From Isurus oxyrinchus (taxonomy: Eukaryota), in NCBI GenBank assembly GCA_026770705.1, contig JANJGN010000012.1, positions 77,686,001 to 77,750,000 on the forward strand: a DNA stretch of 64,000 nucleotides, read 5' to 3'. The translations under genes were made by a program, and so were the position numbers. Under the pieces are notes generated by a model. It was not told the origin of the DNA, searched no databases, and saw nothing but the letters and a program-made list of their open reading frames with translations. Positions 7,326 through 64,000 of this stretch are shown piece after piece (the first letter of the stretch is position 1; every line of letters begins with the position of its first letter).

Positions 7326-8041
7326 CCCTCATTGAGCATCACTCCTGTCTCTGGTCCTTGTGAGGCATGTTCCAACAGTGGCAGTGGTCAGTTATTTCAG
7401 AGTGTCAAAATAACACTGTATTACACTACGTGAACAACAGCCTCCATGTTTTCCACATCACAACCAGATTTTGCAAAATTCTCATGCGTGAACATGTGAA
7501 GATATTTGCAGTCTGGGAAATATGTGCAGCAAAACGTAACTTTATAAGCAGAGTTTACTTACTGCCATTTGGGTTGTTTCTACTGCGGCTATGTGGAACT
7601 CTGATCCAGAGAGAATTCCATAAATCTACTTCAGTTTTTTTTGGACAGATTTGTATTTTAATAATCAGAACTCTTCAATCACTGGATGCGACATCACAGG
7701 CAAAGCAATTCTACCTGTGGGAAATGCACCCTCTGCAGATGTGATGTCACCAAGCTCAGCGTTTAAATATTCACTCACTCCAAAGGATCAGGATCCCATT
7801 TAAATTTCTACCGACTCCCAGGAGTCCCTTTTTCCCCTGTAACAGTCGCCACGCTTCAAAAAAATACTTCATTGGCTGCAAAGCACTTTGGGATGCCCAG
7901 TGGTCATGGAAAGTGCTACGTAAATGCAAGTCTCTCTTTTCTCCTTGAAATACTGTCACATTCCCAGGGTCCCCTTTAAATAAATATTGACACAGTCCCA
8001 GGAACTCACTTTAGATTTTAATACAATCCCAGGAAGTTGCT

Positions 8042-8234
8042 AAACAAGAAAAGAATTACCTGGAAAAACTCAGCAGGTCTGGCAGCATCAGCGGAAAAGA
8101 AAAGAGTTGACGTTTCGAGTCCTCATGACCCTTCAACAGAATCTTCTCCGCCGATGCTGCCAGACCTACTGAGTTTTTCCAGGTAATTCTGTTTTTGTTT
8201 TGGATTTCCAGCATCCGCAGTTTTTTGTTTTTAC
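8042..8234. mobile_element. Miniature Penelope-like element: two inverted terminal fragments
   Basis: The arms are reverse complements (AATTACCTGGAAAAACTCAG / CTGAGTTTTTCCAGGTAATT) and match the termini of the 49307-53063 element. A 14-bp direct repeat CCCAGGAAGTTGCT lies at 8028-8041 and 8235-8248. Confidence 0.85.
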
Positions 8235-8884
8235 CCCAGGAAGTTGCTGTTCTGTCTAAAGACAGTGTCAGGTACCTGAAGGAGCACAGTGCCCTTGTGT
8301 AGAATTTATTTAAACACTGGACTGTCTGGTGATGTTGGCTAGGAATGCCCAGACTTGTCTTAGGTTAATGCAGCAAAGCCTCACAAGCCACAATTCAATT
8401 CTATCTTGATGCTAATGGTTTTTTGATTAAGGATCTATCCAGGGATCAGTCTTTCTAAAATTATAGGCTCTTGAAATTCAAAAAAACAAATATGAAATAT
8501 GAACACAAATGGAACTGAGCTCCTGTTCCTGGTGGCTGGGGTGAGCACACCCCTTGTTTAGATGATACCTAAGGATGTTTTACACTGGACCAATTTACTG
8601 CTGTAAGGATTACAGCCCATTGCTAGAACAATTCACTTACAAATTACTTATTTGAACACAAACTGTATTTTGAAAATACATTTGAGATGTCATGTTTGTG
8701 AGGAGAAATCCTACCAGAAATGTCAATTCTGGAGAATTCCTAACAGTTGCAAGTTGTGGGGGGGAATTGCACTAACTCCAAGAAGCCAGAGTAAGATGGC
8801 TGCTTCACCCGAATTAGAGTGGAGAGTGTAACACTGTTTTGGGAGCGGGATGGGTAGTTGAAGTATAATTTTTTTTGTATATGT

Positions 8885-9190
8885 ATCCATTCTCAGCTTG
8901 TGGGTGTCACTGGCTGGGCCAGCATTTATTGCCCATCCCTAATTGCCCTTGAGAAGGTGGTGGTGAGCTGCCTTCTTGAACCACTGCAGTCCCTGTGGTG
9001 TAGGTACACCCACAGTGCTGTTAGGGAGGGAGTTCTAGTTGACCCAGCGACAGTGAAGGAACGGCACTATATTTCCAAGTCAGGATGGTGAGTGACTTGG
9101 AGGGGAACTTGGAGGTCATGGTGTTCCCATGTATCTGCTGCCCTTGTCCTTCTAGGTGGTAAACCCTTCTAGGGTTTGGAAGATGCTATC
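8885..9190 (-). mobile_element. LINE 3' tail fragment (family with GGGATGGGCAATAAATGCTGG tail)
   Basis: Near-identical to the tails at about 10240, 22820 and 35640, which are attached to RT-coding sequence. Confidence 0.75.
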
Positions 9191-9448
9191 GAAGAAGTAG
9201 CAGATGGACTGCAGACTCAAGAAATAGTGATCCTGATAGCTTCTGCAATGCAGCTGCCCACTTGGCCAACTTAAAGATCATGTCCCTGTAGCCATGCAGC
9301 TGGGCCTGCCTGTTGAAAGATGCTCCTCGAGCATGCCAAAGGCTGGTGCTGGCATTTATGAGGCCTTGACCAAAGGTCTCTCTGAGTGGGCCTCTTGCGG
9401 GGCCATGAGTAACAGTCTCCTGATAATCTCGCTGGTGTTTCCCTGCAG

Positions 9449-9529
9449 CGGAAAGAGGAATTCGAAAGGCAGGAGAAGGAGAGCATCAAGCAAAAAGAGA
9501 GAGAAAGTTTCAAACAGAAAAACCAACAG
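9449..9529 (+). CDS. CASS4: CAS-family scaffold (CASS4-like), penultimate coding exon, RKEEFERQEKESIKQKERESFKQKNQQ
   Basis: Acceptor tttccctgcag and donor CAG|gtaact; 81 bp, phase 0-0. KEEFERQ matches the segment after the YDYVHL motif in NEDD9/BCAR1. It splices in frame to 13058. Confidence 0.8.
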
Positions 9530-10034
9530 GTAACTGCCCAGCTCTCACTGGGATTATGTAAAGTACATTTTACTTAAACTAAATTTGCACTGTTAATGAT
9601 TTTCAAAACTTCTTCAAGTAAAACATCAGAGGTGTTCTCATTAAAATATTTTTATGGTCACATTAGGCAGGCAGCCTTTATTTTCAGTGCTAGAGGGCTA
9701 ACCATGGTGAACAGATTTCAACATTCATGGTGGACGTTCATCGCCAGTTCTTGCTGGACCACTATCAAGTTCTGCTCTTCTCTGTCAAACCTTTTTAGAA
9801 TGCAGGATGCTGGGTCCCTCTTCTCCACTGCCTCTTAAACCACTCTCCCCTGCCTCCTCCACCTCACCCCCAACAACAAATTGGAGTGGCCGATGAATTC
9901 CCTTGTCATGAGGATTGATCAGCTGCCTCTGCTGCTTCCCTCCTCTCGCCTTGCCTACCAGGCCAAACTTTTCTGAAGGCTTCCCCCTATGACAGCTTAA
10001 AGCTCTATCTTTCTCTTGTTTCCATACATGGCAT

Positions 10035-11760
10035 ATTATTTACAACACACAAACACAACTATTTTGCCCAAAAGGTCTGTACTGGTGTTTATGCTCCAGA
10101 AGAGTCTCCTCCCCACCCTTCTTCATCTAACACCATCAATGTATCCTTCCATTCATTACTCCCTCCTATGTGTATTGAACTTTCCCTTAAACGCATCTAT
10201 GTTATTCACTTCAACAATTCAATATTTTTCTTTATTCATTCTGGGATGTGGGCATCGCTGGCTAGGCAAGTATTTATTGCCCATCCCTAATTGTCCTTGA
10301 GACGGTGGTGATGAGCTGCCTTCTTGAAGGGTTGCAGTCCATGTGGTGTAGGTACACCTACAGTGCTGCGAGGGAGTTCCAGGATTTTGACCCAGTGACA
10401 GTGAAGGAACAGTGATATATTTCCAAGTTAGGATGGTGAGTGACTTGGAGGGGAAATTCCAGGTGGTGGTGCTCCTACCTCTCTGCTGTTCTTGTCTTTC
10501 AAGATGGTAGTAGTTGTGGGTTTGGAAGGTGCTGTCGAAGGAGGCTTGGGTGAATTCCTGCAGTGCATCTTGTAGATGGTACACACTGCTGCCACTATTC
10601 ATTGGTGGTGGAGGGAGTGACTGTTTGTGAATGGGGTGCCAATCAACAAGGCTACCTCGTCCTAGATGGCGTCAAGCTTCTTGAGTGTTGTGGGAGCTGC
10701 ACTCATCGAGGCAAGTGGAGAGTATTCCATCACATTCTTGACTTGTGCCTTGTAGAAGGTGGGCAGGCTTTGGGGAGTCAGAAGGAGAGTTACTCGTCAT
10801 AGGATTCCTAACCTCTGGCTTGCTCTTGTAGTCACAGTTTTTATATGGCTAGTTCAGTTAAGTTCAGTTTCTGGTCAAAGGTAACTCCCAGGATGTTGAT
10901 AATGGGGGATCTGTTGATGGTAATGCCTTTGAATGTCAAAGGGCGATGGTTAGATTCTCTCTTGGTCATTGCCTGGCACTTGTATGGCACGAATGTTACT
11001 TGCTTGTCAGCCCCAGCCTGGATATTGTCCAGGTCTTGCTGCATTTGGACCTGGACTGCTTCAGTATCTGAGGAGTTGCAAATGGTGCTGAACATTGTGC
11101 AATCATCAACGAACATCCCCACTTCTGACTTTATGATGGAGGGAAGGTCATTGATGAAGCAGCTAAAGATGTTTGAGCCGAGGACATATAATGATTCCAC
11201 ATTCTAAGCACTCTCTGAGTAAGAGGTTATTTCTGAATTCCCTATCGGATTTATTAGTGACTATCGTATATTGGTGAATCCTGGTTCTGGCCTTGCCCGC
11301 AAGTAAAAGCATCTTCTCTGTGTCTACTCTATCAAAATCTTTTATAAAGTTCAGAATCTCTATTAGGTCACCCTTCAGTTTTCTCTTTTCTAGAGAAAAG
11401 AGCTCTAGCCTGTTCAATTTTTCCTAACACATATAACCCCTCAGTTCTGGTATCATTCTAGTAAACATTCTAGTAAACCTTCTCCAGTGCCTCTATCTCC
11501 TTTTGGCAGTATGGAGATCAGAACATAGCTTCTCTGCTTTTCAATTCAATCCCTCTAGAAATGAACCTCAGCATTTTGTTTGTTTTTTTATGGCCTTATG
11601 AAACTGTGCCACTACTATTATTGATATGTATTTTCACTCCCAGTGCATCTGTCCGTCTGACGATTTAAACACTTACTTTCTAAAGACTATGCGGCCTCAT
11701 CTAAAGAGAATGTGTATTCTTCCTACATAAATGTACCACCTCACACTTAACTAAATTACA
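10035..11760 (-). mobile_element. CR1-like LINE 3' fragment interrupted by a second LINE
   Basis: ORF 11163-11417 (RLELFSLEKRKLKGDLIE) is the typical CR1 ORF2 C-terminus. The tail portion at 10035-10215 resumes at about 11187. Confidence 0.7.
10232..11186 (-). mobile_element. 5'-truncated LINE (RT C-terminal part plus 3' tail)
   Basis: ORF 10841-11200 has IFSCFINDLP...GMFVDDCT (RT motifs 4/5) and carries the shared family tail. Confidence 0.85.
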
Positions 11761-22399: not shown

Positions 22400-22530
22400 C
22401 AAATGAAGAATCATACAGACTTGAAACATTAACTCTGTTTCTCTCTCCACAGACTCTGCTAGACCTGCTGAGTTTTTCTAGCATTTTCTGACTTTATTTC
22501 AGATTTCCAGCATCTGCTGTGTTTTGCTTT
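22400..22530 (+). mobile_element. Older Penelope-like terminal fragment
   Basis: GACTTGAAACATTAACTC...AGACCTGCTGAGTTTTTCTAGC...GATTTCCAGCATCTG is a diverged version of the Penelope termini elsewhere in the window. Confidence 0.6.
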
Positions 22531-22811
22531 TAGCTTAGAATGTGGAACTCACTGTTAGTAGGTATAATTGAGGTGAACAGCATAAATACATTTAAGGGGA
22601 AGCTGGATAAGCACATATGGAGTACGATGTTATGCAATTAGGGTTAGGTGAAGAGGAGTGGTTGAAGGGTCATATGGAAACATAAACACCAGCTGATAAG
22701 GCCAAGTGGCTTGTTTCTTTGCTGGAATCTTTATGTAGTTCTATATTCTAGTTTTTTTCACTTGCATCATTCAGTTATTTCAGGTAGTACATACTTGGCT
22801 TTCTTGTTTTT

Positions 22812-24645
22812 TTAATTCTTTCACAGGATGTAGGTTTTGCTGGCTGGGCCAGCATTTATTGCCCACCCCTAGTTGCCGTTGAGGTGGTGGTGGTGAGCTG
22901 CCTTCTTGAGACGCTGCAGTCCATGTGGTGTAGGTACACCCACAGTGCTGTTAGGAAGGGAGTTCCAGGATTTTGACTCAGCGACAGTGAAGATTTCCAA
23001 ATCAGGATGGTGAGTGACTTGCAGGTGGTGGAGTTCTCATGTCTGCTGCCCTTGTCCTTCCAGGTGGTAGAGGTTGCAGGTTTGGAAGGTGCTGTCTAAG
23101 GAGCCTTGGTGAATTTCTGCAGTGCATCATATAGATGGTACACACTGCTGCTACTGTGCATTGGTGGTAGAGAGAGTGGATGTTTGTGTTTGGGGTACCA
23201 ATCAAGTGGCCTGCTTTGTTCTGGATGGTGTGAAACTTCTTGAGTGCACTCAGCCAGGCAAGTGTAGAGTATTCCATCACACTCTTGACTTGTGCCTTGT
23301 AGATGGTGGACAGGCTTTGGGGAGTCAGGAAGTGAGGTACTCATCGCAGGATCCCTAACCTCTGACCTGCTCTTGTAGCCACAGTATTTATATAGCTAGC
23401 CCAGTTCCGTTTCTGGTCAATGTTAACCCCCAGGGTGTTGATACTGGGGTATTGAGTGATGGTAATTCCATTGAATGTTAAGGGGGTGATGATTAGATTT
23501 TCTCTTGTTGACGAAGGACATTGCCTGGCACGAATGTTACTTGCCACTTGTCAGCCCAAGCCTGAATGTTGTCCAGGTCTTACTGAAGCAGTTTTTTCCC
23601 ATATGCAGCATGAGTCGTCGTAAATGGTGCTGAACACTGTACAATCAGCAGCAAACATCACCACTTCTGACTTTATGGTGGAAGGAAGGTCATTGATGAA
23701 GCAGCTGAAGATGGTTGGGCCTAGGACACTACCCTGAGGAACTCCTGCAGTGATGTCCTGGAGCTGAGATGACTGACGTCCAACAACCACAACCATGTTC
23801 TTTTGTGCTAGGTATGACTCCAACCAGCGGAGAGTCCCCCCCCCCCCCCACCCCCGACCCCACCACCCCCACCCTGCTTCCCACTGACTCCAGTTGCTCC
23901 GGAGGAGGCTGAGATGGATTATCCAGTCGGCACTTCTGGCTGAAGATTGTAGCAAATACTTCAGCCTTATCTTTTGCACTGCTGTGCTGGGCTCCTCCAT
24001 CATTGAGGATGGGGATATTTGTGGAGCCTCCTCCACCAGTGAGTTGCTTAATTGTCCACCACCATTCACGACTGGATGTGGCAGGACTGCAGAGCTTAGA
24101 TCCATTGGTTGTGGGATCACTTAGCTCTATCACTTGCTGCTTATGCTGTTTGGCAAGCAAGTATTCCTGTGTGGTAGCTTCATGAGGTTGACACCTCATT
24201 TTTAGGTATGCCTGGTGCTGCTCCAGCAGGCCTTCCTGCACTCTTCATTGAACCAGGGTTGATCCCCTTGGCTTGATGGTAATGGTAGATGGGGGATATG
24301 CTGGGCCATGAGGTTACAGATTGCGGTTGCGTACAATTCTGCTGCTGCTGAAAGCCCTCAGCACCTCTTGGGTGCCCAGATTTGAGCTGCTAGATCTGTT
24401 TGGAGTCTATCCCATTTAGCCCGGTGGCCACACAACACAATGAACAGTATCTCAAAGGGAAAGCGGGCCTTCTTCTCCACAATGAGTGTGCAGTGGTCAC
24501 TCCTGTCAATACTGTCATGGACAGGTGCATCTGCAACAGGTAGATTGGGGAGGATAAGGTCAAGTAGGTTTTCTCTCTTGTTGGTTCCCTCACCACCTGC
24601 TGTACGCCCAGTCTAGCAGCTATGTCCTTTAGGACTTGGCCAGCC
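22812..24645 (-). mobile_element. Degenerate LINE with internal deletion
   Basis: ORF 23551-24120 has GVPQGSVLGPTIFSCFINDLP..MFAADC. The family tail is at about 22820. Confidence 0.85.
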
Positions 24646-24989: not shown

Positions 24990-26775
24990 TATCATTAAGC
25001 CAGCGTACTAATCCTGGTTCAATGAAGAGTGCAGGAGGACATGCCAGGAGCAATACTAGGCATACCAAAAAAATGAGGTGTCATTCTGGTGAACACAGGA
25101 CTATTTGCGTTCCAAACAGCATAAGCAGCATGCAATAGACAAAGCTAAGTGATCCCACAACCAACAGATCAGTTCCAAGCTCTGCAGTCCTGTTACAGCC
25201 AGTTGTGAAGGGTAGTGGACAATTAAACAATTAGCTAGAGGAGGCAGCTCCAAAAATATCCCCCTCCTTGATGAGGGAGCCTATCAAGTTAATGTAAAAG
25301 ACAAGGCTGAAGCACTTGCACCCACCTTCAGCCAGAATTGCTGAGCGGATGATTCATTTTTGTTTCCACCTGAGGTCTCCAGCATCATAGATGCTAGTTT
25401 TCAGGCAACTAAATTCACTCCACATGATATCAAGAAATGGCTGAAAGCACTGGATTTACAGCAAAGGCAATGGGCCCTGATGACAACGTGTGGTGCTGAA
25501 AACCTGTGCTCCTGAACTAGCTGTGCCCCAAGCCAACCTGTTATGGTACAGATACCAGGCTGGTATCTACCTGAATGTGGAAAACTGCCAAGGTACATGC
25601 TGTTCACAAAAAGCTAGACAAATCCAATCGGGCCAATGACTATCCATCAGTGTACTCTTGATCAAAGTGATGGATGGTGTCATTGGCAGCGCTTTCAAGT
25701 TGTACTTAGTAACATTCTGTTCACTGACACTCAGTTTGGATTCCACAAGGGCCACTTGGTTCCTGGACCTCATTACAGCTTTGGTCAAAACATGGACAAA
25801 AGAGCTGAATTCCAGAGGTAAGGTGAGATAGACTACCCTTAACATCAGGGCAGCATTTGACCGAGTATGGTAGCAAGGAGCCCTGGCATTACTGAAGTCA
25901 ATGAGAATCAGGAGGAAAACTCTCCATTGCTTAGAGCCATACCTGACACAAAGGAAGATTGTGTTTGGAGGCCAAATATCACAGCCTTAGGACATCACTG
26001 AAACAGTTCAAGGCAGTATCCTAGGCCCAACCATCCTCAGTTGTTTCATGAATAACTTTCCCTCCAGCATTAAGAGGGAAATGGGGATGTTCGCTGATGA
26101 TTGCACAATGTTCATTTGCAACTTCGTACATACTGAAGCAGTTCATGCCTGGATGCAGCAAGGCCTGGACAACATTCAGGCTTCGGTGGATAGGTGACAA
26201 GTAACATTTGCATCAAACAAGTGCCAGGCAAAAACCATCTCCAAAAAGCGAGAATCTAACCATCTCCTTCTGACATTACAATTGCTGAATCCCCCACTAT
26301 CCATATGCTGAGGGCTTGCCATTGACCAGAAACTTAACTGGACCACCATATAAATACTGTGGCTACAAGAGCCAGTCAGAGGCTGGGAATTCTGTGACAT
26401 GTAACTCACCTCTTGAATCCTCAAAACCTGCCCACCATCTACATGGCACAAGTCAGGAATGTGATGGAATACTCCTCACCCCCTGGATAAATGCAGCTCC
26501 AATCCCACTGAAGAAGTTCATCAGAATCCAAAACAAAGCAGCCAGTTTGATCAGCACCTCAGCCACCACCTTAAGTAGTCAATCCCTCCACCACTGGCAC
26601 AGTGGTAGCAGTGTGTACCATCTACTAGATACACTGCAGCAACTCACCAAGGTTCCTTCAACAGCACCTTCCAAACTTGCAACGTCTACTGCCTAGAAGA
26701 AAAAGGTAGCAGGCACATAGGAACTCCACCAGCTGCAAGCTCCCCTTCAAGTTGCACATCATCCCAACTTGGAAT
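24990..26775 (+). mobile_element. Degenerate LINE, same family, opposite orientation
   Basis: Homologous to 22812-24645 (GTTCAATGAAGAGTGCAGGA; GGGATGTTCGCTGATGATTGCAC encodes FADD). Many stops and frameshifts. Confidence 0.85.
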
Positions 26776-27504: not shown

Positions 27505-28190
27505 GTCAGAGACACCAGGCAGAATCTCTCTGTCAGACACCATGCAGGATGACATCTTAGGCACACACTCACACAGTCAGACACCAGGCAGGGTTACATC
27601 TCACACAAACACACACACACACACAGACAACAGGCAGCATTACATCTCAGGCACGCATACACACATACAGCAGGATTACAACTCAGACGCGTGTACTCAC
27701 AGATGCAGTCAAACACCAGGCAGGATTACATCTCAGGCAGACATGCACACAGAGACACAGTCAGACAGCAGGCAGGATTACATGTGACTGTGTGCGAGAG
27801 AGAGATGTAATCCTGCCACAGTCAGACACGCTGCAGGATCACGTCACCCCCACACAGTCTGACACACTGCAGGATCACGTCACCCTCACACAGTCAGACA
27901 CGCTGCAGGATCACGTCACCCCCACACAGTCTGACACACTGCAGGATCACGTCACCCTCACACAGTCAGACACGCTGCAGGATCACGTCACCCCCACACA
28001 GTCTGACACGCTGCAGGATCACGTCACCCCCACAGTCAGACACACTGCAGGATCACGTCACTGTCACACGCACACACGACAGGATTACAGAACGCACACA
28101 CACGTGCGCACATGTGGCAGGATTACATCGCGTGTGCGCGCCTGCGTGGCAGATTATATCACACACACTAAGGCAGGATTACATCGCGAG
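27505..28190. repeat. Tandem repeat: homogeneous 36-bp units (about 27819-28062) within older GGCAGGATTACATC/CA-rich units
   Basis: Unit CAGTCAGACACGCTGCAGGATCACGTCACCCCCACA, 6-7 copies. It translates as the QSDTLQDHVTPT repeats in ORF 27792-28319. Confidence 0.9.
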
Positions 28191-35600: not shown

Positions 35601-35632
35601 ACAACGTGTTCAAAGACCTTGATTTTTTTTTA

Positions 35633-37300
35633 ACTCATTCATGTGATGTGGGCGTTGCTGGCTCGGCCAGCATTTATTGTCCATCCCTAATTGCCCTTGA
35701 GAAAGTGATGGTGAGCTGCCTTCTTGAACCGCGGCAGTCCATGTGGTGTAGGTACACTCACAGTGCTGTTAGGGAGGAAGTTCCAGGATTTTGACCCAGT
35801 GACAGTGAAGGAATTACGATATATTTCCATATCAGGATAGTGAGTGGCTTGAAGGGGTTTGGTTAGATTTTCTCTTGCTAGACATGGTCATTGCCTGGCA
35901 CCTGTGTGGAGCAAATGTTACATTCCACTTGTCCGTCCAAACCTGGATATTGTTCAGGTCTTGCTGCATTTGGACATGGACTGCTTCAGTATCTAAGCAG
36001 TTACAAATGGTGAACATTATGCAATCATCAGCAAACATCCCCACTTCTGACTTTATAATGATGAAACAGCTGAAGATGGTTGGGCCTAGGACAGTACCCT
36101 GAGGAACTCCTGCACTTGATAGCATGGTTGATGACCCCTTCCATTATTTTACTGATGGTCAAGAGTAGACTGATGGGACAGCAATTGGCTGGGTTGGATT
36201 CGTCCTGCTTTGTGTGTACAGGACATACTTGGACAATTTCCACATTTCTGGGTAGATGCCACTGTTGTAGCTGTATTGGAATAGCTTGGCTAGGGACATG
36301 GCAAATTCTGGAGCACAAGTCTTCGATACTATTGCCGAAATAGTGTCAGGGCCCATAGCCTTTGCAGTATCCAAGTTAAATCCAGTATATTTCCAAGTCT
36401 GGATGGTGTGTGGCTTGGAGGGGAACTTCCAGATGGTGGAGTTCCCAAGTATCTGCTGCCCTTGACCTTCTAGATGATAGCGGTTGTGGATTTGAAAGGT
36501 GCTAAGGAGCCTTGGTGAGTTGCTGCAGGGCATCTTGTAGATGGAATACACAGCTGCCATTATACATCGGTGGTGGAGGAAGTGAATGTTTGTGGATGGG
36601 GTGCCAATCAAGTGGGCTGCTTTGTCCTGGATGGTATTCCATCACTTGCCTGGCTTGTGCCTTGTAGAAGATGGACAGGCACTGGAGAGTCAAGAGGTGA
36701 GTTACTCGCTATAGGATTCCTAGCCTCTAACCTGCTTTTGTAGACACAGTATTTATATGGCTAGTCCAGTTCATTTTCTGCTCAATGGTAACCTCTAGGA
36801 GGTTGACAGTGGGGGATTTGGCAATGATAATGCCATTGAAGGTCAAGACGCAATGGTTAGATTCTCTTTTGTAGAAGATGGTCACTGCCTGGCACTTGTG
36901 TGGCATGAATGTCATTTGCCTGTCATACCAAGCCTGGATATTGTCCAGGTCTTGTTGCATTTGGACGTGGATTGCTTCAGTATTTGAGTGGCGGCAAATG
37001 GTGCTGAATATGGTGCAATCATCAGCTAGTATCCCCACTTCTAACCTTATGATGGGAGGAAGTTCATTGATGAAGCAGCTGAAGATGGTTGGGCCTAGGA
37101 CACTACTCTTGAGGAACTCCCGCAGTAATGTCTTCGAACTGAGATGATTGATCTCTAACAACCATAACCATCTTCTTTTGTGCTAAGTATGACTCCAACC
37201 AGCAGAGAGTTTCCCCCCACCCCCCGATTCCTGTTTTGATTCCTTGATGCCACACTTGTTCACATGCTGCCTTGATGTCAAGGGCAGTTACTCTCCTCAC
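35633..37300 (-). mobile_element. Mosaic of two rearranged LINE fragments (FADD family)
   Basis: Two RT segments: GVPQGTVLGPTIFSCF..GMFADDC (35832-36125) and SVLGPTIFSCFINELP..ILADDC (36727-37161). Confidence 0.85.
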
Positions 37301-37790
37301 CTGAGGATAGGAAGTTTGCAGATGGAGCAGTAGTTTGCAAGGACTGTAACAAAGAGGTATTTTTTTTGGGGGGCAGTGAGTACAATAGCCAAGGAGAGGA
37401 AATGAATTACAGTACAAAGTAACATGGGGTCTAGGTAAGCAAGTTGGGTATTCAGGGTAGTCAGAAGTGGATTTTGGCTCAAGGGAGCAAGAAGTGAGTC
37501 TCAGACAAGAAAAGGCATGAGGGGAGATAGGAGAGAAACTAGAGAAATAAGCAAAGTTGAGGCTTTGTGTAAAGGAGTAAGGCAGCTGAACAGATGGTCT
37601 TAATCTTAATCATTAAGAATGGTTTAATAACAATTTTGGTAAAATAATAAAAAACTCCAGTTACCAGCTCCTACGACACTCACGTTCTATCAGTAAAGAA
37701 AAAGAATGTCTCTCCTGTATCATTTCATCCCAGAACTCGATCTTCCATTTGCATTTGTTGACCACCAAAACAAAAACTGTTTGGACAAAC

Positions 37791-46400: not shown

Positions 46401-47146
46401 TGAACAGAGGAACAGGAAAGTGGCAACCACATTGCTAGAAATATATTATAGAACCCTGCCTCCCCGCAGAACGTCTGAGCCACTGCTGGTGCTGTGTACT
46501 TGGCTCTGGCTGTACTCCCCAGAGGAACCATCGCCATCAGCAGTATTCAGCAAAATCAAAAAGGCCCATAAAAATTAGAGCAGCATGTGCATAAAAAATA
46601 ATTTACAACTAGCTTTCACTGCTGGCTCGCTTGGTACAGGCATTGTTCGACTAAGCCAACCTGGCCCCAGGTTCCCTTTTTGGTTTGTGCTCTGTTGGCA
46701 GGATCTCCCTTCTCTAACCTAGGGACATGAGGATACCTGCTACATGGTACCTGGTCTGTGCTGCTATCTATCAACCCCTTGGGATAAGCGGCAAAACCCT
46801 CACGGTGAAAGAGGTTACTGATGTTCACTGTCTTACCTCAACTGAAAAATGCTCTATTAGGTGAAGTACTGAAAGGAAACTGATAGGAGGCAGCAACTTC
46901 AGAGTTGGGGGGAGAGAAAAGCAAAGGAAAAAAAGTGGGAAAAATAAAAAAAAGTTAATTCTGAATACTTGTGAGGGAATTGAAAAAATCAATGTCACTA
47001 ATTTATGTCACTCCTTACTTGGCAAATGTGAGGGTACCAAAAGAAACAAGCTGCTTCAGTTAATCCATTTAAAAAAAAAGATTCACTAATGACTCCCTTT
47101 GCTTGAGCATGAACATTTTGGTTCAGTGGGCCTTTCTGGGTCCTAA

Positions 47147-47592
47147 ACAAAAACAGAATTACCTGGAAAAACTCAGCAGGTCTGACAGCATCGGCGGAGA
47201 AGAAAAGAGTTGACGTTTCGAGTCCTCATGACCCTTCGACAGAACTTGAGTGAGTCCAAGAAAGAGGTGTTAAAGTGCACCTATGTGTTCTTTTGTCCTG
47301 TTGTTTGTGACATCTTTTGATGATTTGCTTCTATCACTGCTTGTTTGTCCCTACAACCACACCAACCCCCTCCACTTCTCTCTCTCTCCGCACCCCCCTC
47401 CACACACACACACCTTAAACCAGCTTATATTTCACCTCTTTCTTGGACTCACTCAAGTTCTGTCGAAGGGTCATGAGGACTCAAAACGTCAACTCTTTCC
47501 TGCTCCGCCGATGCTGCCAGACCTGCTGAGTTTTTCCAGGTAATTCTGTTTTTGTTTTGGATTTCCAGCATCCGCAGTTTTTTTGTTTTTAT
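47147..47592. mobile_element. Short Penelope-like element with inverted arms
   Basis: Inverted repeat of about 120 bp. A 15-bp TSD CTTTCTGGGTCCTAA lies at 47132-47146 and 47593-47607. Confidence 0.9.
47208..47246 (-). ncRNA. Minimal type I hammerhead ribozyme-like motif (best-preserved copy)
   Basis: The - strand reads AGUU-CUGUCGA-A-GGGUC-AUGAG-GACUC-GAAAC-GUC-AACU: stem I AGUU/AACU, stem II GGGUC/GACUC, palindromic ACGU stem III, GUC site. Confidence 0.7.
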
Positions 47593-47838
47593 CTTTCTGG
47601 GTCCTAAGCTGCCAAATGCTAGACATTAACTTTTAGAGAGCATTGGATGACAACTACTTGAAGACCTCTACCAATGCCAGTCAACAAAACAAGGACAAGA
47701 GCAGCTCAAGAGAACTTCCCAAACCTGGACTGGGAGCACAGACCATAAAGGATGATGAGGATGAGTTGCACCTTACTTTTATATTTCAACACATGCTGCA
47801 AGACTCATTTCCACAATATAAGGTCAAGTCTCACTAAC

Positions 47839-47943
47839 CTCATGTGGTCAAACCTCATGAAGAGTGCATTGTACTCCACTGCTCGTTGTTGAAGTTCCAC
47901 ATCTAAACTGCTTCCATAGGTAGAAACTGCCTTCCTGATGCGA
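47839..47943 (-). CDS. AP1G1-like: Gamma-adaptin exon, (D)[35 protein letters not shown]
   Basis: tttcag / gttagt; 105 bp, phase 2-2. Contains the [10 protein letters not shown] hallmark. Confidence 0.95.
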
Positions 47944-48792
47944 CTGAAAGGATAACAGGTTGCAGTCAAAGAGTGAAATACCTTGTGAAAAGCTTAGTGA
48001 TCTGAATCAAATAGGCATTGGAAAAGTAAACCAAACTTTCCAAAATAATTTATGCTTAAAGGAACATTCCAGGATCCAGGATTCCCTTTTATCTTTAAAG
48101 TGCCAACTCTCACTGGGTAAAGTTCCACTGGCAGACCTCAGTATTGGCAATTGTACCTCAGTGAGAGCACCTTCAGGATAGATGGAGATGTTCATCTAAA
48201 AATGTTAAAATAGGAGATGGTGCTATTTGTACTTGGTCAATGCCAGGTGGCCATTAAGTAACCCAACTACTTTCAGAAAATGCCAACAGCTTTAGATGGC
48301 TAAGCTCCTGCGGGAAGGGAGTGGGATCCTCAATGAAGAAAATATCAACAGGAGAATGAGCTAATCCGTATATTAGACAATGGGGTCCACAATCTGCAAA
48401 CTGTGACAAAACTGTAGTACACAAGTCAATGAAGGAGCTGTGGACAGTCTGAAAGACACTAGGGTTCCTGTCCTGCCTTGTGCATAGAGAACAGACACAG
48501 GAGCTCAGATGAACAATGATGACTGTGAATTACTTCAGGATCAGGTTACCGTTTTTTGAAAATAACTTGAAAATAGAAGGAGCATTTGACAACCAACTCC
48601 CCATTCCAGTGATAAAATGCTTCTCAATAGGTACCAGCAAGGACTCCCAATATTCTCAGAATTTGTACTCTACCTCTCAGCTGAATCAGCACAAAGGTTT
48701 TGAGATTTCTTATAGACAGAAAATCAATTGTTGTGCATTTTGTATGTTTTAAGAAGAGGAAAGATTGAGATACCAACACACTTTCTACTTAC

Positions 48793-48920
48793 TCCGTGCT
48801 GCTCTGCAGTCGTGTGCTAAGCTTCATAATGGCGGTCAGTGCATATTCCCGTGTTGTAAGTGCCGAGAGGCTGGACTGCAGAATCTTCTCCAAAACATCC
48901 AAAACTTCATCTTCTGTAAC
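48793..48920 (-). CDS. AP1G1-like: Gamma-adaptin exon, [42 protein letters not shown]
   Basis: atttag / gtaagt; 128 bp, phase 0-2. Confidence 0.95.
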
Positions 48921-49406
48921 CTAAATAAGAAAGGAAGTAGCTCAGTAGAGTTATCAAGACAAGAGTTGCACAGTGCATACACAGGAAGCTCAATAAAAGC
49001 TACAGGACTCAAAACAATGAAGAAAATTTATTTTTAATTAACCAGGCCATTTACATTTGGAAAGAATATAGTCCATCAGTGACAACGCAATGGAATCTAG
49101 CTTGGAACTCTGATGCCATATTGTAGACAGTACTCTACAAATATCCAATTCCAGCATTCTCCAACTGTAAACAAACCAAACTTCCTAAATACAGTTTAAT
49201 ATTAATTTCAGCAGAGAAATTGACAATTCAATTCAGCCATTTTTTTCCCTCAAAAATGATGGGAAAGAAAAGGCCAGCTGGTCAATGCAGCCCGTCCCAT
49301 ACACATAAATATAAAAACAAAAAACTGCGGATGCTAGAAATCCAAAACAAAACAGAATTACCTGGAAAAACTCAGTAAGTCTGGCAGCATCGGCGGAGAA
49401 GAAAAG

Positions 49407-49445
49407 AGTCGACGTTTCGAGTCTTCACGACCCTTCAACAGAACT
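49407..49445 (-). ncRNA. Hammerhead-like motif in the Penelope left arm
   Basis: AGUU-CUGUUGA-A-GGGUC-GUGAA-GACUC-GAAAC-GUC-GACU. Confidence 0.65.
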
Positions 49446-52424
49446 GAGTGAATCTAAGGAGAGGGGAGAATTATAAGCTAGTTTAAGGTGGGGCGGGGGG
49501 GGTGGGGAAGAGAGAAGTCAGGGGTTGGGGTGGGGGGGGGTGGTTGTAGGGACAAGCAAGCAGTGATAGGTGCAGATAATCAAAAGATGTCACAGACAAA
49601 AGAACACAGAGGCATTGAAGGTGGTGATATTCTCTAAACGAATGTGCTAATTAAGAATGAATGGTAGGGCACTCAAGGTATAGCTCTAGTGGGGGTGAGG
49701 TGGAAAGACTAGCAGGGCATAAAAGATTTAAAATAATGGAAATAGGTGGGAAAAGAAAAATCTGTATAAATTATTGGAAAAAACAAAAGGAAGGGGGAAG
49801 AAACAGAAAGGGGGTGGGGATGGAGGGGGGAGCTCAAGATCTAAAGTTGTTGAATTCAATATTCAGTCCGGAAGGCTGTAAAGTGCCTAGTTGGAAGATG
49901 AGGTGCTGTTCCTCCAGTTTGCGTTGGGCTTCACTGGAACAATGCAGCAAGCCAAGGACAGACATGTGGGCAAGAGAGCAGGGTGGAGTGTTAAAATGGC
50001 AAGCGACAGGGAGGTTTGGGTCTTTCTTGCGGACAGACCGCAGGTGTTCTGCAAAGCGGTCGCCCAGTTTACATTTGGTCTCTCCAATGTAGAGGAGACC
50101 TCATTGGGAGCAACGAATGCAGTAGACTAAGTTGGGGGAAATGCAAGTGAAATGCTGCTTCACCTGAAAGGAGTGTTTGGGCCCTTGGATGGTGAGGAGA
50201 GAGGAAGTGAAGGGGCAGGTGTTGCATCTTTTGCGTGGGCATGGGGAGGTGCCAAAGGTGGGGCTTGAGGAGTAGGGGGTAATGGAGGAGTGGACCAGGG
50301 TGTCCCGGAGGGAACGATCCGTACGGAATGCCGCCGGGGGGGGGGGGGGGGGGGGGGGGTGAAGGGAAGATGTGTTTGGTGGTGGCATCATGCTGGCGTT
50401 GGTGGAAATGGCGGAGGATGATCCTTTGAATGCAGAGGCTGGTGGGGTGATAAGTGAGGACAAGGGGGACCCTATCATGTTTCTGGGAGGCAGGAGAAGG
50501 CGTGAGGGCAGATGCGCAGGAGATGGGCCGGACACGGTTGAGAGCCCTGTCAACAACCGTGGGTGGAAAACCTCAGTTAAGGAAGAAGGAGGACATGTCA
50601 GAGGAATTGTTTTTGAAGGTAGCATCATCAGAACAGATGCGATGGAGGTGAAGGAACTGAGAGAATAGGATGGAGTCCTTACAGGAAGCAGGGTGTGAGG
50701 AGCTGTAGTCGAGGTAGCTGTGGGAATCACTAGGCTTGTAATGGATATTGGTGGACAATCTTGTCAGCTTGCTCCTGCCCCACGGAACTCATTTCTCGTT
50801 ATCTTGATTCCCTTCTCTCTCTCCTTGTCCAGTCCCTTCCCACCTACATCCGTGATTCCTCTGACACCTTACGTCACATCAATTTCCAGTTCCCTCTTCA
50901 CCGCTTCCTCTTCATCATGGATGTCCAATCCCTCTCCACCTCCATCCCCCACCAGGATGGTCTGAGGGCCCTTAGCTTCTTCCTCGAACAATCTCCATCC
51001 ACCACTACTCTCCTCCGTCTGGCTGAACTTGTTCTCACACTGAACAATTTCTCCTTAAACTTCTCTCACTTCCTCCAAATAAAAGGTGTGGCTATGGGTA
51101 CCCGCATGGGCCCCAGCTATGCCTGTCTCTTTATGGGGTATTGGAACATTCCTTGTTCCAATCCTACTCCGGCCCCCTTCCACAACTCTTTCTCAGGTAC
51201 ATCAATGATTACTTCGGTGCTGCTTCATGCTCTCGTTGGGACTTGGAAAAATTTATTAATTTTGCTTCCAATCTCCACCCCTCCATCATTTTCACATGGT
51301 CCATCTCTGACACTTCCCTTCCCTTCCTTGACCTCTCTGTTTCAATTTCTGGTGATAGACTGTCCACCAATATCCATTACAAGCCCAGTGACTCCCACAG
51401 CTACCTCGACGACAGCTTCTCCCACCTTGCTTCCTGTAAGGACTCCATCCCATTCTCTCAGTTCCTTCGTCTCCGTCGCATCTGTTCTGATGATGCTACC
51501 TTCAAAAACAGTTCCTCTGATATGTCCTCCTTCTTCCTTAACCGAGGTTTTCCACCCACGGTCGTTGACAGGGCCCTCAACTGTGTCCGGCCCATCTCCC
51601 ACGCATCCACCCTCACGCCTTCTCCTCCCTCCCAGAAACATGACAGGGTCCCCCTTGTCCTCACTTATCACCCCACCAGCCTCTGCATTCAAAGGATCAT
51701 CCTCCCCCATTTCCGCCAACTCCAGCACGATGCCACCACCAAACACATCTTCCCTTCACCACCCCCGGCGGCATTCGGTAGGGATCATTTCCTCTGGGAC
51801 ACCCTGGTCCACTCCTCCATCACCCCCTACTCCTCAACCCCCACCTATGGCACCTCCCCATGCCCACGCAAAAGATGCAACACCTGCCCCTTCTCTTCCT
51901 CTCTCCTCACCATCCAAGGGCCCAAACACTCCTTTCAAGTGAAGCAGCATTTCACTTGCATTTCCCCCCAACTTAGTCTACTGCATTCGTTGCTCCCAAT
52001 GCGGTCTCCTCTACATTGGAGAGACCAAATGTAAACTGGGCGACCGCTTTGCAGAACACCTGTGGTCTGTCCACAAGAATGACCCAAACATTGCTGTCGC
52101 TTGCCATTTTAACACTCCAACCTGCTCTCTTGCCCACATGTCTGTCCTTGAATTGCTACATTGTTCCAGTGAGCCCAACGCAAACTGGAGGAACAGCACC
52201 TCATCTTCCGACTAGGCACTTTACAGCCTTCCGGACTGAATATTGAATTCAACAACTTTAGATCTTGAACTCCCTCCTCCATCCCCACCCACTTTCTGTT
52301 TCTTCCCCCTTCCTTTTGTTTTTTCCAATAATTTATATAGATTTTTCTTTTCCCACCTATTTCCATTATTTTATAATCTTTTATGCCCTGCTAGCCTTTC
52401 CACCCCACCCCCACTAGAGCTGTA

Positions 52425-52718
52425 ACTCTTTCGAGTACAAACCCGTTTCCATCTGTTTATTCAGATGAAGTTACATTGTTTCATAGTTTTGCCATTGTGA
52501 GATTTGAACTCTTGATCTTGGGTTTACAAACCCAGTACCATAACCACTTGGCTATTTAGGCCAAGCCCCACTAGAGCTGTAATTCTTTCGAGTACAAACA
52601 CGTTTCCATCTGTTTCAGATGAAGTTACATTGTTTCATAGTTTGCCATTGTGAGATTTGAAATCTTGATCTTGGGTTTACAAACCCAGTACCATAACCAC
52701 TTGGTTATTTAGGCCAAG
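52425..52718 (-). mobile_element. Two tandem copies of a short tRNA-derived SINE, each bounded by the same 16-bp direct repeat
   Basis: Units at 52425-52565 and 52582-52718, with A-box TAGCCAAGTGG and B-box GAGTTCAAATC on -. CCCCACTAGAGCTGTA occurs at 52409, 52566 and 52719. Confidence 0.85.
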
Positions 52719-52960
52719 CCCCACTAGAGCTGTACCTTGAGTGCCCTACCATCCATTCTTAATTAGCACATTCGTTTAGATATCACCTTCAAAACCTGTG
52801 TTCTTTTGTCTGTGACATCTTTTGATTATCTGCTATCACTGCTTGCTAGTCCCTACAACCACACCACTCCCCCCGCCACTTCTTTCCTCCCAACCAACAC
52901 CGCCCCACCCCCCCCCACCTTAAACCAGCTTATAATTCACCCCTCTCCTTAGATTCACTC

Positions 52961-52999
52961 AGTTCTGTTGAAGGGTCACGAAGACTCGAAACATCAACT
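52961..52999 (+). ncRNA. Hammerhead-like motif in the Penelope right arm (GUC changed to AUC)
   Basis: AGUU-CUGUUGA-A-GGGUC-ACGAA-GACUC-GAAAC-AUC-AACU. Confidence 0.55.
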
Positions 53000-54889
53000 C
53001 TTTTCTTCTCCGCCGATGCTGCCAGACCTACTGAGTTTTTCCAGGTAATTCTGTTTTTGTTTTGTCCCATACTCATGATGGCTGGAGCATCAGGACCTTT
53101 CACTACACTGTAATACTAGACTGTGGATCTATACTATTAGCCCTATATTACTAAAGTCCTGATTTTAGGCTTAGTGCTGTGGTGAGGTACTTTCAGAAAA
53201 TGATGGTGGGGAGTGGGGGGGCGGGGTGGAGAATGAGCAACTCTTCTCTGCTAGCTCTGAAAAGCATTGATAGAAGGCTTGTGTGAATGGACTATTTCTT
53301 CCACATCCACCACTTGTATGCTCAGACACAGGTGGGTACCAAGGGACATTAAATCTCAAAGCTAACATAATATGACTGTGTTCGGACACTTTTAGCAACA
53401 TGTGTTCTGTTTCAATTAGTTTGTAATTAGCATTGAAGTGTTTGAATATTGTTGGCATAGCTTAAATATATCCAAATTAACAACCAACCATGCATATTTT
53501 TCAAACTGATTAATGATGAAGAGTCTAAAAATTGTGTCACAGCCAAGGCCCTTGGCCACAGAATTATACAGAAGTGTAGTTTTCACAGAATCACATAATT
53601 TTACCGAGTGCGAGTGAACATAAAGCTGAAGGCAGCTTTAACAAGTTTGGTAACACTCCAATAAATAGTTTTAAGTGCAGAAATGACACCAGTGGATATC
53701 GTATTTTAAATTCAAATTGAATTCAGTAGATGGCTACAAGAAAATCCTTCAATTTACTGAAATTCCCACATTTTATCAACTGAGCAGTAGAATTTCCACA
53801 GGGTCACCCAATCATCCACAGTAACTTCAGTGGGAAATCCAGGGAATCCCCAGAAAAAAAAACAGTACAGCTGTGGATATTCAGACAAAACACCACTGGC
53901 AAACGATGAAAGCTGTCAATTCAGTTAACTGCCAACTCAAGTGCAATCAAGTCTTGATCTTTAATTCAAGAGCAAACGGCTCTTTCTGAACAGCAATTAA
54001 AGAATTGGTTCCTCTTGGTTCCCCACACTTGCCACCCCACCCCCCATCTCCCTCCACTTTCTCAAGCTCACTCCTAAGTCATTCATGATCTTTCTCCTCC
54101 AGAAGGGCAAGGGTGTGTCCTGGACCCCACCAATTCCATTCCAGTTGTATGCCAAAAGATACATCAGGGGGTCTTGAGTTAGCTCTCCCCAATTTTACCT
54201 CTTATCTCCAAAATGAAGCTCCAGCCACGACTTGGCATTTTCTTCTTACTGGGACCAAAGCTTGCATATATATGCTACCTTTAACTAGGAAAATGTCAAA
54301 ATGTACTTTATGAAAGGGATTGGGGAAAAAATAGGTAGGAATAAAGAAATAGATAATGAGCTAGGATGAGAAAGTTTGGAGAAAGTATCAAAAGCTTAGT
54401 TAAAAAGATAGATTTTGAGTCTTTTAAAAGGGTAAAACAGAGGAAGCGGGGATTTGGGAGGTCAATCTAAACAGCAGAATCAAGATTGTTGAAGTACTAA
54501 TAATGTAGTAAAGGACACAACTAGTGTACAAAAGGCCTGAGAATCAGAAGAATGAAAGACATGAAAGTGAACATAAAGTTGGAGGTATCTTCAGGTCAAG
54601 TAGGGGAAGCCATGGAGATACAAGAGACCAGAAGTTCAGCAAATTGTAGGACACCACTCAGTAGCATAATGTGATGCAACAGCTATATGAGCGTCACCTT
54701 ACTTTTAACACTTACATTGCCCTTGCACAATCCAAAGACCAAGAAATAATTCAGCAGTCACTAGAGTGTTAAATAAGTGAAAGCATCATCAACCAGTTGT
54801 AATACAGCTGTTTGAGACTTTCACTGACTTTGTCAGGAAAAGACAGGTCTTTACAGTGTGCTAATATTGTCTTATGCACACAATCACAC

Positions 54890-55344: not shown

Positions 55345-56750
55345 GGCCAATCTTCAGCCAATTCTATTCACTCCCATATATCAAGAAATGGCTGAAGGCA
55401 CTGGATGCTGCAAAGGAAATGGGCCCTGACAACATCCTGGGAACAAGCTCATGCCTAGCTGCCAAGCCCTAGCCAAGCTGTTCCAGTACAGCTATAACAA
55501 TGGCATCCATCCGGCAATATGTCCTGTCCACAAAAAGCACAACAAATCCAACTGGGCAGTTACCGCCCCATCAGTCTTCTCTCGATCATCAGTAAAGTGA
55601 TAGAAGGTGTTACCAACAGTGCTATCAAGCAGCATTTACACTGCAATAAGTTACTAACCATTGCTCAGTTTGGGTTCCTCCAGGGCCACACGTCTCCTGA
55701 TCTCATTACAGCCTCGGTCCAAACATTGAAAAAAAAGAGCTGAACTCCAGAGATGATGAGAGAGTGATTGCCCTTAACATCAAGGTAGCATTCGCCTGAG
55801 TGTGGAATTAAGAAGCCCTAGCAAAACTGAAGTCAATGGGAATCGGGGGAAAACTCCACTGGTTGGAGCCATACCTAGCACAAGGAAGATGGTTGTGGCT
55901 GTTGGTGGCCAATCATCTCAGTCCCAAAGCATTGCTGTAGGAGTTCCTCAATGTCCTAGGCCCAACCATCTTCAGCTGCTTCACCCTTCCCTCCATTATA
56001 ACGTCAGAAAAAGGGATGTTCACTGATGATTGCAGAATGTTCAAAACTATCCGCAACTCCTCAGATACTGAATCAATCCATGTCCATATGCAGCAAGACC
56101 TGGACAAGATACAGCCTTGGACTGATAAGTGGCAAGTAACATTTGAGCCACACAAGTGCAAGCGATGACCATCTCCAACGAGAGAATCTAGCCATCTCCA
56201 CTTGACATTCAATGGCATTACCATCACCGAATCCTCAATTTTAACATTCTGGGGCTACCACTGACCAGAAAGTGAACTGGACCAGCCAAATAAATACTGT
56301 GAGCAGGTCAGAGACTGGGAATCCTGTGGTGAATAACTCACCACCTGACTCCCCAAAGCCTGTCCACTATCTACAAGGCACATGTCAGGACTATGATGGC
56401 ATACTCTCTACTTGCCTGGAATGAGTGTGGCTCAGTGTGCATTATATACAAGATGCACTGCAGCAACTCATCAAGGCTCCTTTGACAGCAGTTCCAAACT
56501 CTTGACCTCTACCACCTAGGACAAGGACAGCAGGAGCATGGGAACATCATCACCTACAAGTTCCCCTCCAAGCCACATACAATCATGACTTGGAACAATA
56601 TTGCCGTTCCTTCACTGTTGCTGGATCAAAATCATGGAACTCCCTTCCTAACAGCACTCTGGGTGTAGTTACACCACATGTACTGCAGCAGTTCATGAAG
56701 GTGGGCAACAAATGTTGGCCTAGCCAGCGATGCCCACATTCCATGAAAGA
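55345..56750 (+). mobile_element. Degenerate LINE (FADD family) with 3' tail
   Basis: ORF 55519-55743 has YRPISLLSIISKVIE...QFGF (RT domain 1). The family tail is at about 56700-56745. Confidence 0.85.
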
Positions 56751-62984: not shown

Positions 62985-64000
62985 AAAAGCCATGAGCAGA
63001 CCATGCAGCCCCTTGAGCCAGCTTTGCCATTCAATACGATCATGGCTGATCTTCTGCCTCAACCCCACTTTCCCATCCAATCTCATATCCTTCGATGCCC
63101 TGAGACCAAAAACATGTCTATCTTGGCCTTAAAAATATTCAATAAAACATCCACAACCCCGTGGGGTGAGAGTTCTAAAGATATGGACCGCAGCAGTTCA
63201 AGAAGACAACTCACCACCACCTTTTCAAGGGCAATTTGGGATGGACAATAAATGCTGGCTTAGCCAGCGACGCCCAGATCCCAAGAATGAATAAAAAAAA
63301 ATTTACAACGGTCAGTGAAGAAATTTCCTCACATACGAGTCTTAAATGATCGACTCATTATCCTGAGACTATGCCTGTGTTTAAGATTCCTCAGCGAGGT
63401 AAATACCTTCTCGGTGTCTATCTTGTCAAATCCCTCCAGAAACTTGTGTGTTTCAATAAGATCATCTCTCAATCTTCTAAAGTCTCATCCCTGGAACCAA
63501 CCTAGTGAAACTTCGCTGTACTGCCTCTAATGCAAGTGGTATCCTTCCTTAGATATGGAGGCCAAAACCACATAGTGTCCCAGGTGTGGTCTCACCAAAG
63601 CCCTGTACAATCACAGTAAGATTGCCTTATTTGTGTACCCCAATCCTCTTGCAATAAAGGCCAACATGCCATTTGCCTTCCTAGTTGCTTGCTGCAGCTG
63701 CATGCTAGCTTTGTGCTCCTTGTACTAGTACATTCAAGTCCTTCTGAACATCAACATTTACAGAATCTTGCCTTTCAAGAAATATTCTGTCCTTCTTTTC
63801 TTTCTACCAAAGTGAATAACCTCTCACATCCCCACATTATATTCCATCTACCACCTTGGCGCTGAGTCACTTAACCTGTCTATATTTCTTTGCAGCCCCC
63901 TCATAGCTCCCATTCCCATTTAACATTGTATCGTCAACAAACTTGGATGCATTACTCTGTCTCTTTGTCTAAGTCATGAATATAAATTGTGAATAACTAA
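62985..64000 (-). mobile_element. CR1-like LINE 3' portion with a nested + strand tail of the FADD-family LINE (about 63185-63300)
   Basis: CR1-type tail (ATCATGGCTGATCT, also at about 22205) plus decayed RT sequence near 63930. The nested tail reads GGGATGGACAATAAATGCTGGCTTAGCCAGCGACGCCC. Confidence 0.75.

Follow-up and report, generated by a model that had tools for sequence, protein, structure and literature searches.

Hammerhead ribozyme motifs were analysed in a 64,000-nucleotide stretch of the genome of the shark Isurus oxyrinchus (GenBank assembly GCA_026770705.1, contig JANJGN010000012.1, positions 77,686,001 to 77,750,000), which is referred to below as the window and along which the coordinates are counted. 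The motifs are the terminal-repeat hammerheads of a Penelope-like retrotransposon that probably bears an endonuclease and whose linker is of the Neptune/Nematis type, and they carry U in place of A at core position 6 (U6). The explanation judged rather probable, with considerable room for doubt, is that the hammerhead has lost catalytic strength but persists for a structural or protein-assisted role, and that the element transposes from RNA left uncut. In the proposed mechanism, a master lineage of the retrotransposon would have fixed the A6-to-U change (A6U), which would weaken self-cleavage as judged from mutants at the same position. Uncut RNA would serve as the template for new copies, and the hammerhead-shaped fold would probably be retained for its structure or for a low level of protein-assisted activity.

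The preliminary description of this DNA had placed five motifs with U at core position 6 in the window, and direct checking bore this out. The motifs are of minimal type I, and the five copies have U6 at 8136, 47239, 47463, 49438 and 52968. The core is U6/C7 in the copies at 47208-47246 (minus strand, predicted cut after 47212) and 47456-47494 (plus strand), and U6/U7 in those at 8105-8142 (minus), 49407-49445 (minus) and 52961-52999 (plus). As had been described, stem II was identical in all five copies while loop II varied. The copies at 47208 and 49407 had been named the best preserved; the first is otherwise intact, whereas the second has a G replacing A directly past the cut site and is not fully of the consensus. 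The two described lesions, G12-to-A at 47483 and G16.2-to-A at 52993, were present; both are G-to-A changes at CpG sites and represent ordinary post-insertion decay, and through the latter the stem III palindrome of the 52961 copy is lost. The AGUU start claimed for the motifs does not hold for the 8105 copy, which begins GAUU because an inversion junction cuts the motif and clips the 5' arm of stem I. A relic reported near 22405 was confirmed as a decayed terminal-repeat end (22404-22536, plus strand) with about 74-78% identity to the U6 copies. It is cut or decayed upstream of G8, and its loop II and tail are those of the older A6-type subfamilies, which places it in an older sister subfamily and not among the U6 copies. 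The Rfam check that had been suggested was run on the window and returned nine matches at E<=10, none of them to a hammerhead family.

Inheritance of U6 and identity of the element

The 4.98-Gb assembly was searched for exact occurrences of the motif in which any base was allowed at positions 6 and 7 and in loop II. This search gave 87,876 matches, compared to none for a reversed control pattern, and the matches are therefore not due to chance. Only 679 of them carried A6. Among the first 100 exact matches listed, position 6 was U in 98 and C in 2. The first 100 A6 matches listed comprised 77 of older loop II types and 23 of the young type (counted by eye), and the 23 fit scattered back-mutations. 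The exact pattern is tuned to the young family; hence 1.4 Mb taken at arbitrary places was added as a sample, in which 141 profile hits were found, 95 of them spanning the motif. Position 6 in these copies was U in 58, A in 34, C in 2 and a gap in 1, and the motif was otherwise intact in 36 of the 58 U6 copies against 2 of the 34 A6 copies. The element is young and very abundant, with tens of thousands of genome copies.

Conservation of the remaining motif in the 58 sampled U6 copies was high for the 3' core (G12 in 51, A13 in 57, A14 in 58, A15.1 in 58) and for the stem III side (C15.2 in 54, G16.2 in 52, U16.1 in 58). These copies have a stem I of 4 bp, within the canonical 3-5 bp, and a stem II of 5 bp, with G10.1-C11.1 in 50 and an extra A after A9 in 57. 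When compared with the CUGANGA core, position 6 differs and the other six positions match. The motif is a variant and not a canonical minimal hammerhead ribozyme (min-HHR), with every testable feature present but A6.

A tree was built from 43 long terminal-repeat copies and rooted at the midpoint, three long copies with no readable motif being excluded. The tree was ladder-like and revealed all 29 U6 rows together with two point revertants on one side of a branch with 100/100 support, the remaining 12 A6 rows lying on the other side under this root. The mean pairwise difference was 0.21 among the A6 rows, 0.13 in the earliest U6 grade and 0.03 in the latest grade. This pattern indicates that A6U arose once, in a ladder-like master lineage that remained active long afterwards. 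The earliest U6 grade is rare, at about 6 of the 58 sampled U6 copies, and the burst came later with C7. The earlier proposal that U6 is an inherited family trait and not random decay was thereby upheld, on the single-origin branch and on the occurrence of U6 beside intact open reading frames (ORFs) that are about 99% alike. Three isolated copies of older type (L146:7397, L139:5760 and L167:3276) have U or C at position 6 outside the U6-lineage context and are probably individual mutations.

The preliminary description had also assigned the minimal type I fold to Penelope terminal repeats, and this is supported by the genome motif search, the ORF-flanking repeats and the sampled copies. A genome protein search, in which 141 matches out of 132,000 candidates were scored, revealed an open frame of 926 codons in six of the 141. 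Identity among five of these intact ORFs is 98.6-99.1%, and the sixth stands at about 95%. The intact ORF, of 918 amino acids counted from the first Met, matched Pfam RVT_1 with 32 bits (cut-off 29.6) and contains the DKG and YIDD motifs, and its look-alikes in the Atlas carry RVT_1 and HTH_animal (0.98). The match to Pfam GIY-YIG was weak and below the cut-off (E 0.018, 15.8 bits against 22.6), and a string resembling the GIY-YIG motif stands at residue 822. A PDB sequence search with the intact ORF gave no match. From residue 784 onward the ORF holds a CX2-5CxxC linker; such a linker between reverse transcriptase (RT) and endonuclease defines the Neptune and Nematis clades, according to the relevant part of PMC8557442, and a Neptune/Nematis type is therefore indicated.

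Direct repeats bearing the motif stand on both sides of the ORF in L076, L080 and L081, and at five of the six intact loci the motif in the flanking repeat is U6/C7. Pseudo-long terminal repeats, an inverted 5'-truncated copy, an optional tail and a target duplication were all observed, as in endonuclease-bearing Penelope-like elements. The 3' ends were bimodal past the cut site, at +63..+71 in 30 of 56 and at +97..+104 in 21 of 56; an optional tail of 30-40 bp is known for Penelope-like elements from portions of PMC11167929 and PMC3846280. A coding constraint on U6 was rejected, as the first ATG is found only some 140 nt beyond the cut site. The identity of a non-LTR retrozyme was rejected as well: retrozymes are non-coding tandem units with one hammerhead each (bioRxiv 2026.07.22.740005, in part), whereas the units here are either coding elements of 3.3 kb or scattered truncated ends.

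Two loci gave further observations on the element. L089 (G000:C12:13119000-13128900) is a tandem array of 3,315-bp element units with a U6/C7 motif in each; the units are 100% identical across the 2,001 bases compared, which points to a very recent tandem insertion or duplication. L081:2849-2936 is a possible GT..AG intron of the 5' untranslated region, which spans both tail end points and stops two bases short of the ATG. Among the public assembled contigs examined, none was listed with a splice across this putative intron, and the 40 differences listed out of 72 did not include position 6.

Self-cleavage, the copied RNA and constraint on the fold

If cut RNA serves as template, short copies are expected to begin at +1. 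Among 56 U6-lineage copies, 22 extend beyond -100 and the other 34, with starts from -100 to +45, were scored. Sixteen of the 34 start in -41..-29, compared to a uniform expectation of 3.0, while one starts at the cut (-3..+5), compared to 2.1. The first base of stem I is at -34, inside the start cluster. None of 20,000 simulations reached 16 in any 13-nt window, and the partner-discounted count of 11 out of 29 was reached in 15 of the 20,000. Because the short copies begin at the first bases of the motif and not at the cut site, the result is in line with a copied RNA that carried the whole motif uncut. This holds whichever cause of the cluster applies; candidates are a transcription start, a splice acceptor with its pyrimidine tract and AG, and a template switch aided by stem I. 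The hexamer at the cluster reads TTAGTT, TCAGTT or CAAGTT, and in Penelope of D. virilis an intron ends at helix I (PMC4209133, in part). In the older group, each of nine apparent starts at -3..+5 was inspected individually and none was clean at +1; in most of them the hammerhead is decayed or divergent, or there is an internal deletion or an upstream inversion.

Tight head-to-head pairs accounted for 22 of the first 100 motif matches listed, and in 10 of the 11 listed pairs 2-14 bases separate the two cores. By analogy with Poseidon of the anole, reverse transcription would start at two tail sites, about 65 and about 100 nt past the cut site, and would run to the RNA end or to a strong stop at the first bases of the motif. 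Such stops may yield the many 100-135-nt and head-to-head copies.

Reduced self-cleavage by U6 is likely by analogy, because mutants of position 6 and of the CUGA turn are slow and minimal Penelope hammerheads are already weak. In the portions of the sources drawn on here, a natural A6C phage ribozyme has a kobs below 0.1/min (PMC3088659), with a rate strongly lowered in Mg2+ and little in Mn2+ (PMC7151607). A full mutant scan found low activity for every single change in the CUGA turn (PMC9901934), and the weakness of minimal Penelope hammerheads extends to dimers (PMC4209133). The same limit applies to the reports that hammerhead mutants of anole Poseidon inserted normally in vitro, unprocessed RNA being the main template and the hammerhead cleaving only with the element protein (PMC11167929), and that Naiads spread without canonical hammerheads (PMC8557442). 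Transposition probably does not require cleavage. Thermodynamic folding of ten natural copies, single and paired, did not separate A6 from U6. The literature search on shark Penelope hammerheads gave nothing and no published U6 hammerhead variant was found, though the article of Lunse et al. 2017 on Penelope variants, which lay outside the search, may describe position-6 variants. The preliminary description had offered either an active variant core or a family mobilised without efficient cleavage. The second has the evidence, namely 5' ends off the cut site and slow position-6 mutants; the first is less probable, with the constraint kept on the rest of the fold in its favour.

Constraint after A6U was assessed by counting changes of the majority base from one U6 grade to the next, over five grades in succession (4, 4, 5, 11 and 5 rows), the two revertants being excluded. 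None of the 12 core positions other than 6 changed, and of 18 stem positions one changed, from A-U to G-U with the pair kept. Three of the seven positions left free by the hammerhead changed (N7, one loop II base and H17), compared to 51 of the 171 sites upstream and 7 of the 57 downstream. Constrained positions differed from free ones with a Fisher p of 0.016 and from upstream sites with a p of 0.001. The pattern of change is that predicted by a retained hammerhead fold, which thus looks constrained as far as these few events can tell. Among the A6 subfamilies, stem II has double-sided changes in two pairs (GC 21/AT 5; AT 14/GT 10/GC 7), counted without a shuffle control, and the only stem change within the U6 lineage is one-sided.

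In the youngest copies (L081:2751-2768 and equivalents), a near-copy of the 3' half of the motif was observed just upstream of stem I. It comprises the stem II 3' arm, GAAA and UC, and emerges step by step through the ladder of subfamilies. One predicted fold has it paired with stem I, which would block the hammerhead in read-through RNA. A second, permuted hammerhead formed from it was rejected by reasoning on geometry, there being no room for stems I and III.

Several points weigh against a weakened hammerhead copied from uncut RNA. A cleavage rate for A6U in hammerheads was not found in the literature examined, and predicted folds rarely prefer the hammerhead stems, A6 or U6 alike. The motif did not differ significantly from the downstream tail (7/57, p 0.25) and could simply sit in a generally conserved end; the constraint test is built on 4 changes in 37 motif sites. 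The sample of 5' ends is small, with an upper 95% bound of 15% for ends at the cut, and cut RNA might exist yet go uncopied. The pile-up at -41..-29 occurs in the older group as well (17 of 68 copies); it therefore predates U6 and says nothing specific to it.

A tentative alternative is that U6 forms a working variant core, which would cleave adequately with protein, a dimer partner or Mn2+ and serve in trimming tandem transcripts or in forming circles. It draws on the constancy of all 12 other core positions, two CpG sites included, against 30% of upstream sites changed, and on position 17, which went from U to C within the allowed NUH set. A6C is well active in Mn2+ (PMC7151607, in part), cleavage of the anole hammerhead is protein-dependent (PMC11167929, in part), and the copy L191 begins exactly at the cut. 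Set against these, a single start at the cut among 34 short copies does not exceed the chance expectation, and the earliest U6 copies show no compensating change. Moreover, A6 occurs in all 44 rows examined of the published metazoan alignment, whose search required A6 (PMC4209133).

It is rather unlikely that the ribozyme is dead, with its sequence conserved because it overlaps the transcription start and internal promoter, or a protein-binding region, so that DNA or primary sequence would be under constraint and not a fold. The clustering of 5' ends at the first base of the motif would suit this explanation, as would the start hexamer, which we take to be close to the initiator consensus. The absence of a significant difference from the downstream tail favours it too, and the terminal repeat of D. 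virilis Penelope has an internal promoter (PMC2377424, in part). It is opposed by the identity of the changed positions, which are the hammerhead-free ones (N7, loop II, H17) plus one pair-keeping stem change, and by the double-sided stem II changes in older subfamilies (G-C/A-U, A-U/G-U/G-C). Lastly, it is very improbable that the hammerhead was a brake, its cutting removing the cap or detaching the priming site, whose release by A6U drove the expansion: cleavage would part the ORF from the priming site, since the two tail sites follow the cut, U6 now dominates intact copies and Craig et al. suggest that hammerheads may parasitise Penelope-like elements (PMC8557442, in part), but the earliest U6 grade preceded the burst and was rare, a useless brake should decay yet the core was kept, and the order of events is not cause.

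Insertions and the gamma-adaptin gene in the window

The motifs of the window belong to three insertions. Each consists of two arms in inverted orientation, and the target duplications measure 14, 15 and at least 9 bp. The short head-to-head insertion at 47147-47592 has two terminal-repeat ends with inverted arms of 129 nt and a 15-bp target duplication (47132-47146, 47593-47607). The largest, at 49303-53063, is a 5'-truncated Penelope-like element plus an inverted truncated copy, within an exact 9-bp target duplication (49294-49302, 53064-53072). It holds a frameshifted remnant of the RT-endonuclease ORF at 50758-52265 (plus strand; residues 418-926 of an intact relative by tblastn) and an inverted copy of the 3' part of the ORF at 49837-50761 (minus strand; residues 624-926). 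A Pfam search of the broken ORF pieces of the window gave no match. Within the 3' repeat of this insertion, a direct duplication of 173 bp of non-element sequence, 95% identical, was observed at 52409-52734. The very short insertion at 8042-8234, with a 14-bp target duplication (8028-8041, 8235-8248), is an example of a short head-to-head copy.

Between the two larger insertions lies a host exon at 48795-48920 (minus strand), which matched AP-1 gamma-1 chains with an E value of 2.6e-10; Adaptin_N exons lie upstream of it on the same strand. The earlier assignment to a gamma-adaptin gene holds, and with the gene on the minus strand the copies at 47208 and 49407 are in the sense direction. The relevance hinted at for the gamma-adaptin pre-mRNA was not supported, each of the two copies being one arm of an inverted insertion. 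Folding predicts that the 47208 copy pairs along its full length with its inverted partner, which would hide it within a duplex of about 130 bp. For the 49407 copy, an inverted partner of 159 nt was observed at a distance of 3.4 kb. Cutting of the gamma-adaptin pre-mRNA by the hammerhead copies of the window is unlikely, as modelled, because they lie in inverted insertions.

Other repeats were observed in the window. A long C-rich satellite with a unit of 27-28 nt covers 1-7500, and a minisatellite array with a 36-nt unit covers 27519-28130. A dispersed repeat family with many copies of 70-87% identity occurs at 8867-11187, 22800-24343, 25400-26774, 35624-37302, 55353-56701 and 63183-63303.

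Comparison with known systems

The element class and the link of hammerheads with Penelope-like elements are known already; new is the fixation of U6, accompanied by natural variants that form a datable series. One lineage altered a core base that is sensitive to mutagenesis, kept all else and came to dominate the genome. The role of hammerheads in Penelope-like elements is still open in the consulted parts of PMC4209133, PMC8557442 and PMC11167929, and natural A6 ancestors, early and late U6 copies and single-base revertants make the need for cleavage testable with natural sequences. The hammerhead-like family with the most copies in this genome escapes Rfam as well as descriptor searches that require CUGANGA.

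The comparisons below likewise refer to the consulted portions of the papers. The min-HHR of metazoan Penelope elements (Cervera and de la Pena 2014, PMC4209133) shares with the shark family its location in both terminal repeats, the short stem I, the extra base after A9, G10.1-C11.1, GAAA, the palindromic C-G, UH and the low expected activity of the monomer. It differs in having A6 in 44 of the 44 alignment rows examined, whereas the shark family has U6. The core variant reported for it is a compensated U3-A8 pair, and no shark entry was found in the searchable supplement.

The A6C hammerhead of Bcep176 (Perreault 2011, PMC3088659; Naghdi 2020, PMC7151607) is a natural and uncompensated change at the same core position. 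It has C and not U, and is a single phage ribozyme measured to have low or Mn2+-preferring activity, whereas the shark family is a dimer-type motif in tens of thousands of copies that is known from sequence alone.

Poseidon of Anolis carolinensis (Frangieh 2024, PMC11167929) shares with the shark element an ORF with RT and GIY-YIG, the latter putative in the shark, two tail end points downstream of the hammerhead, the potential for head-to-head copies from priming on both strands, and, as proposed for the shark element, an uncut RNA template. The Poseidon ORF starts inside stem II, in contrast to the first ATG of the shark element past the cut site, and the shark ORF, unlike that of Poseidon, has the CX2-5CxxC linker of the Neptune/Nematis types. 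Naiad and Chlamys (Craig 2021, PMC8557442) also attained very high copy numbers with no canonical hammerhead; they have an N-terminal endonuclease and lack the canonical motif, whereas the fold of the shark family is complete except at one base.

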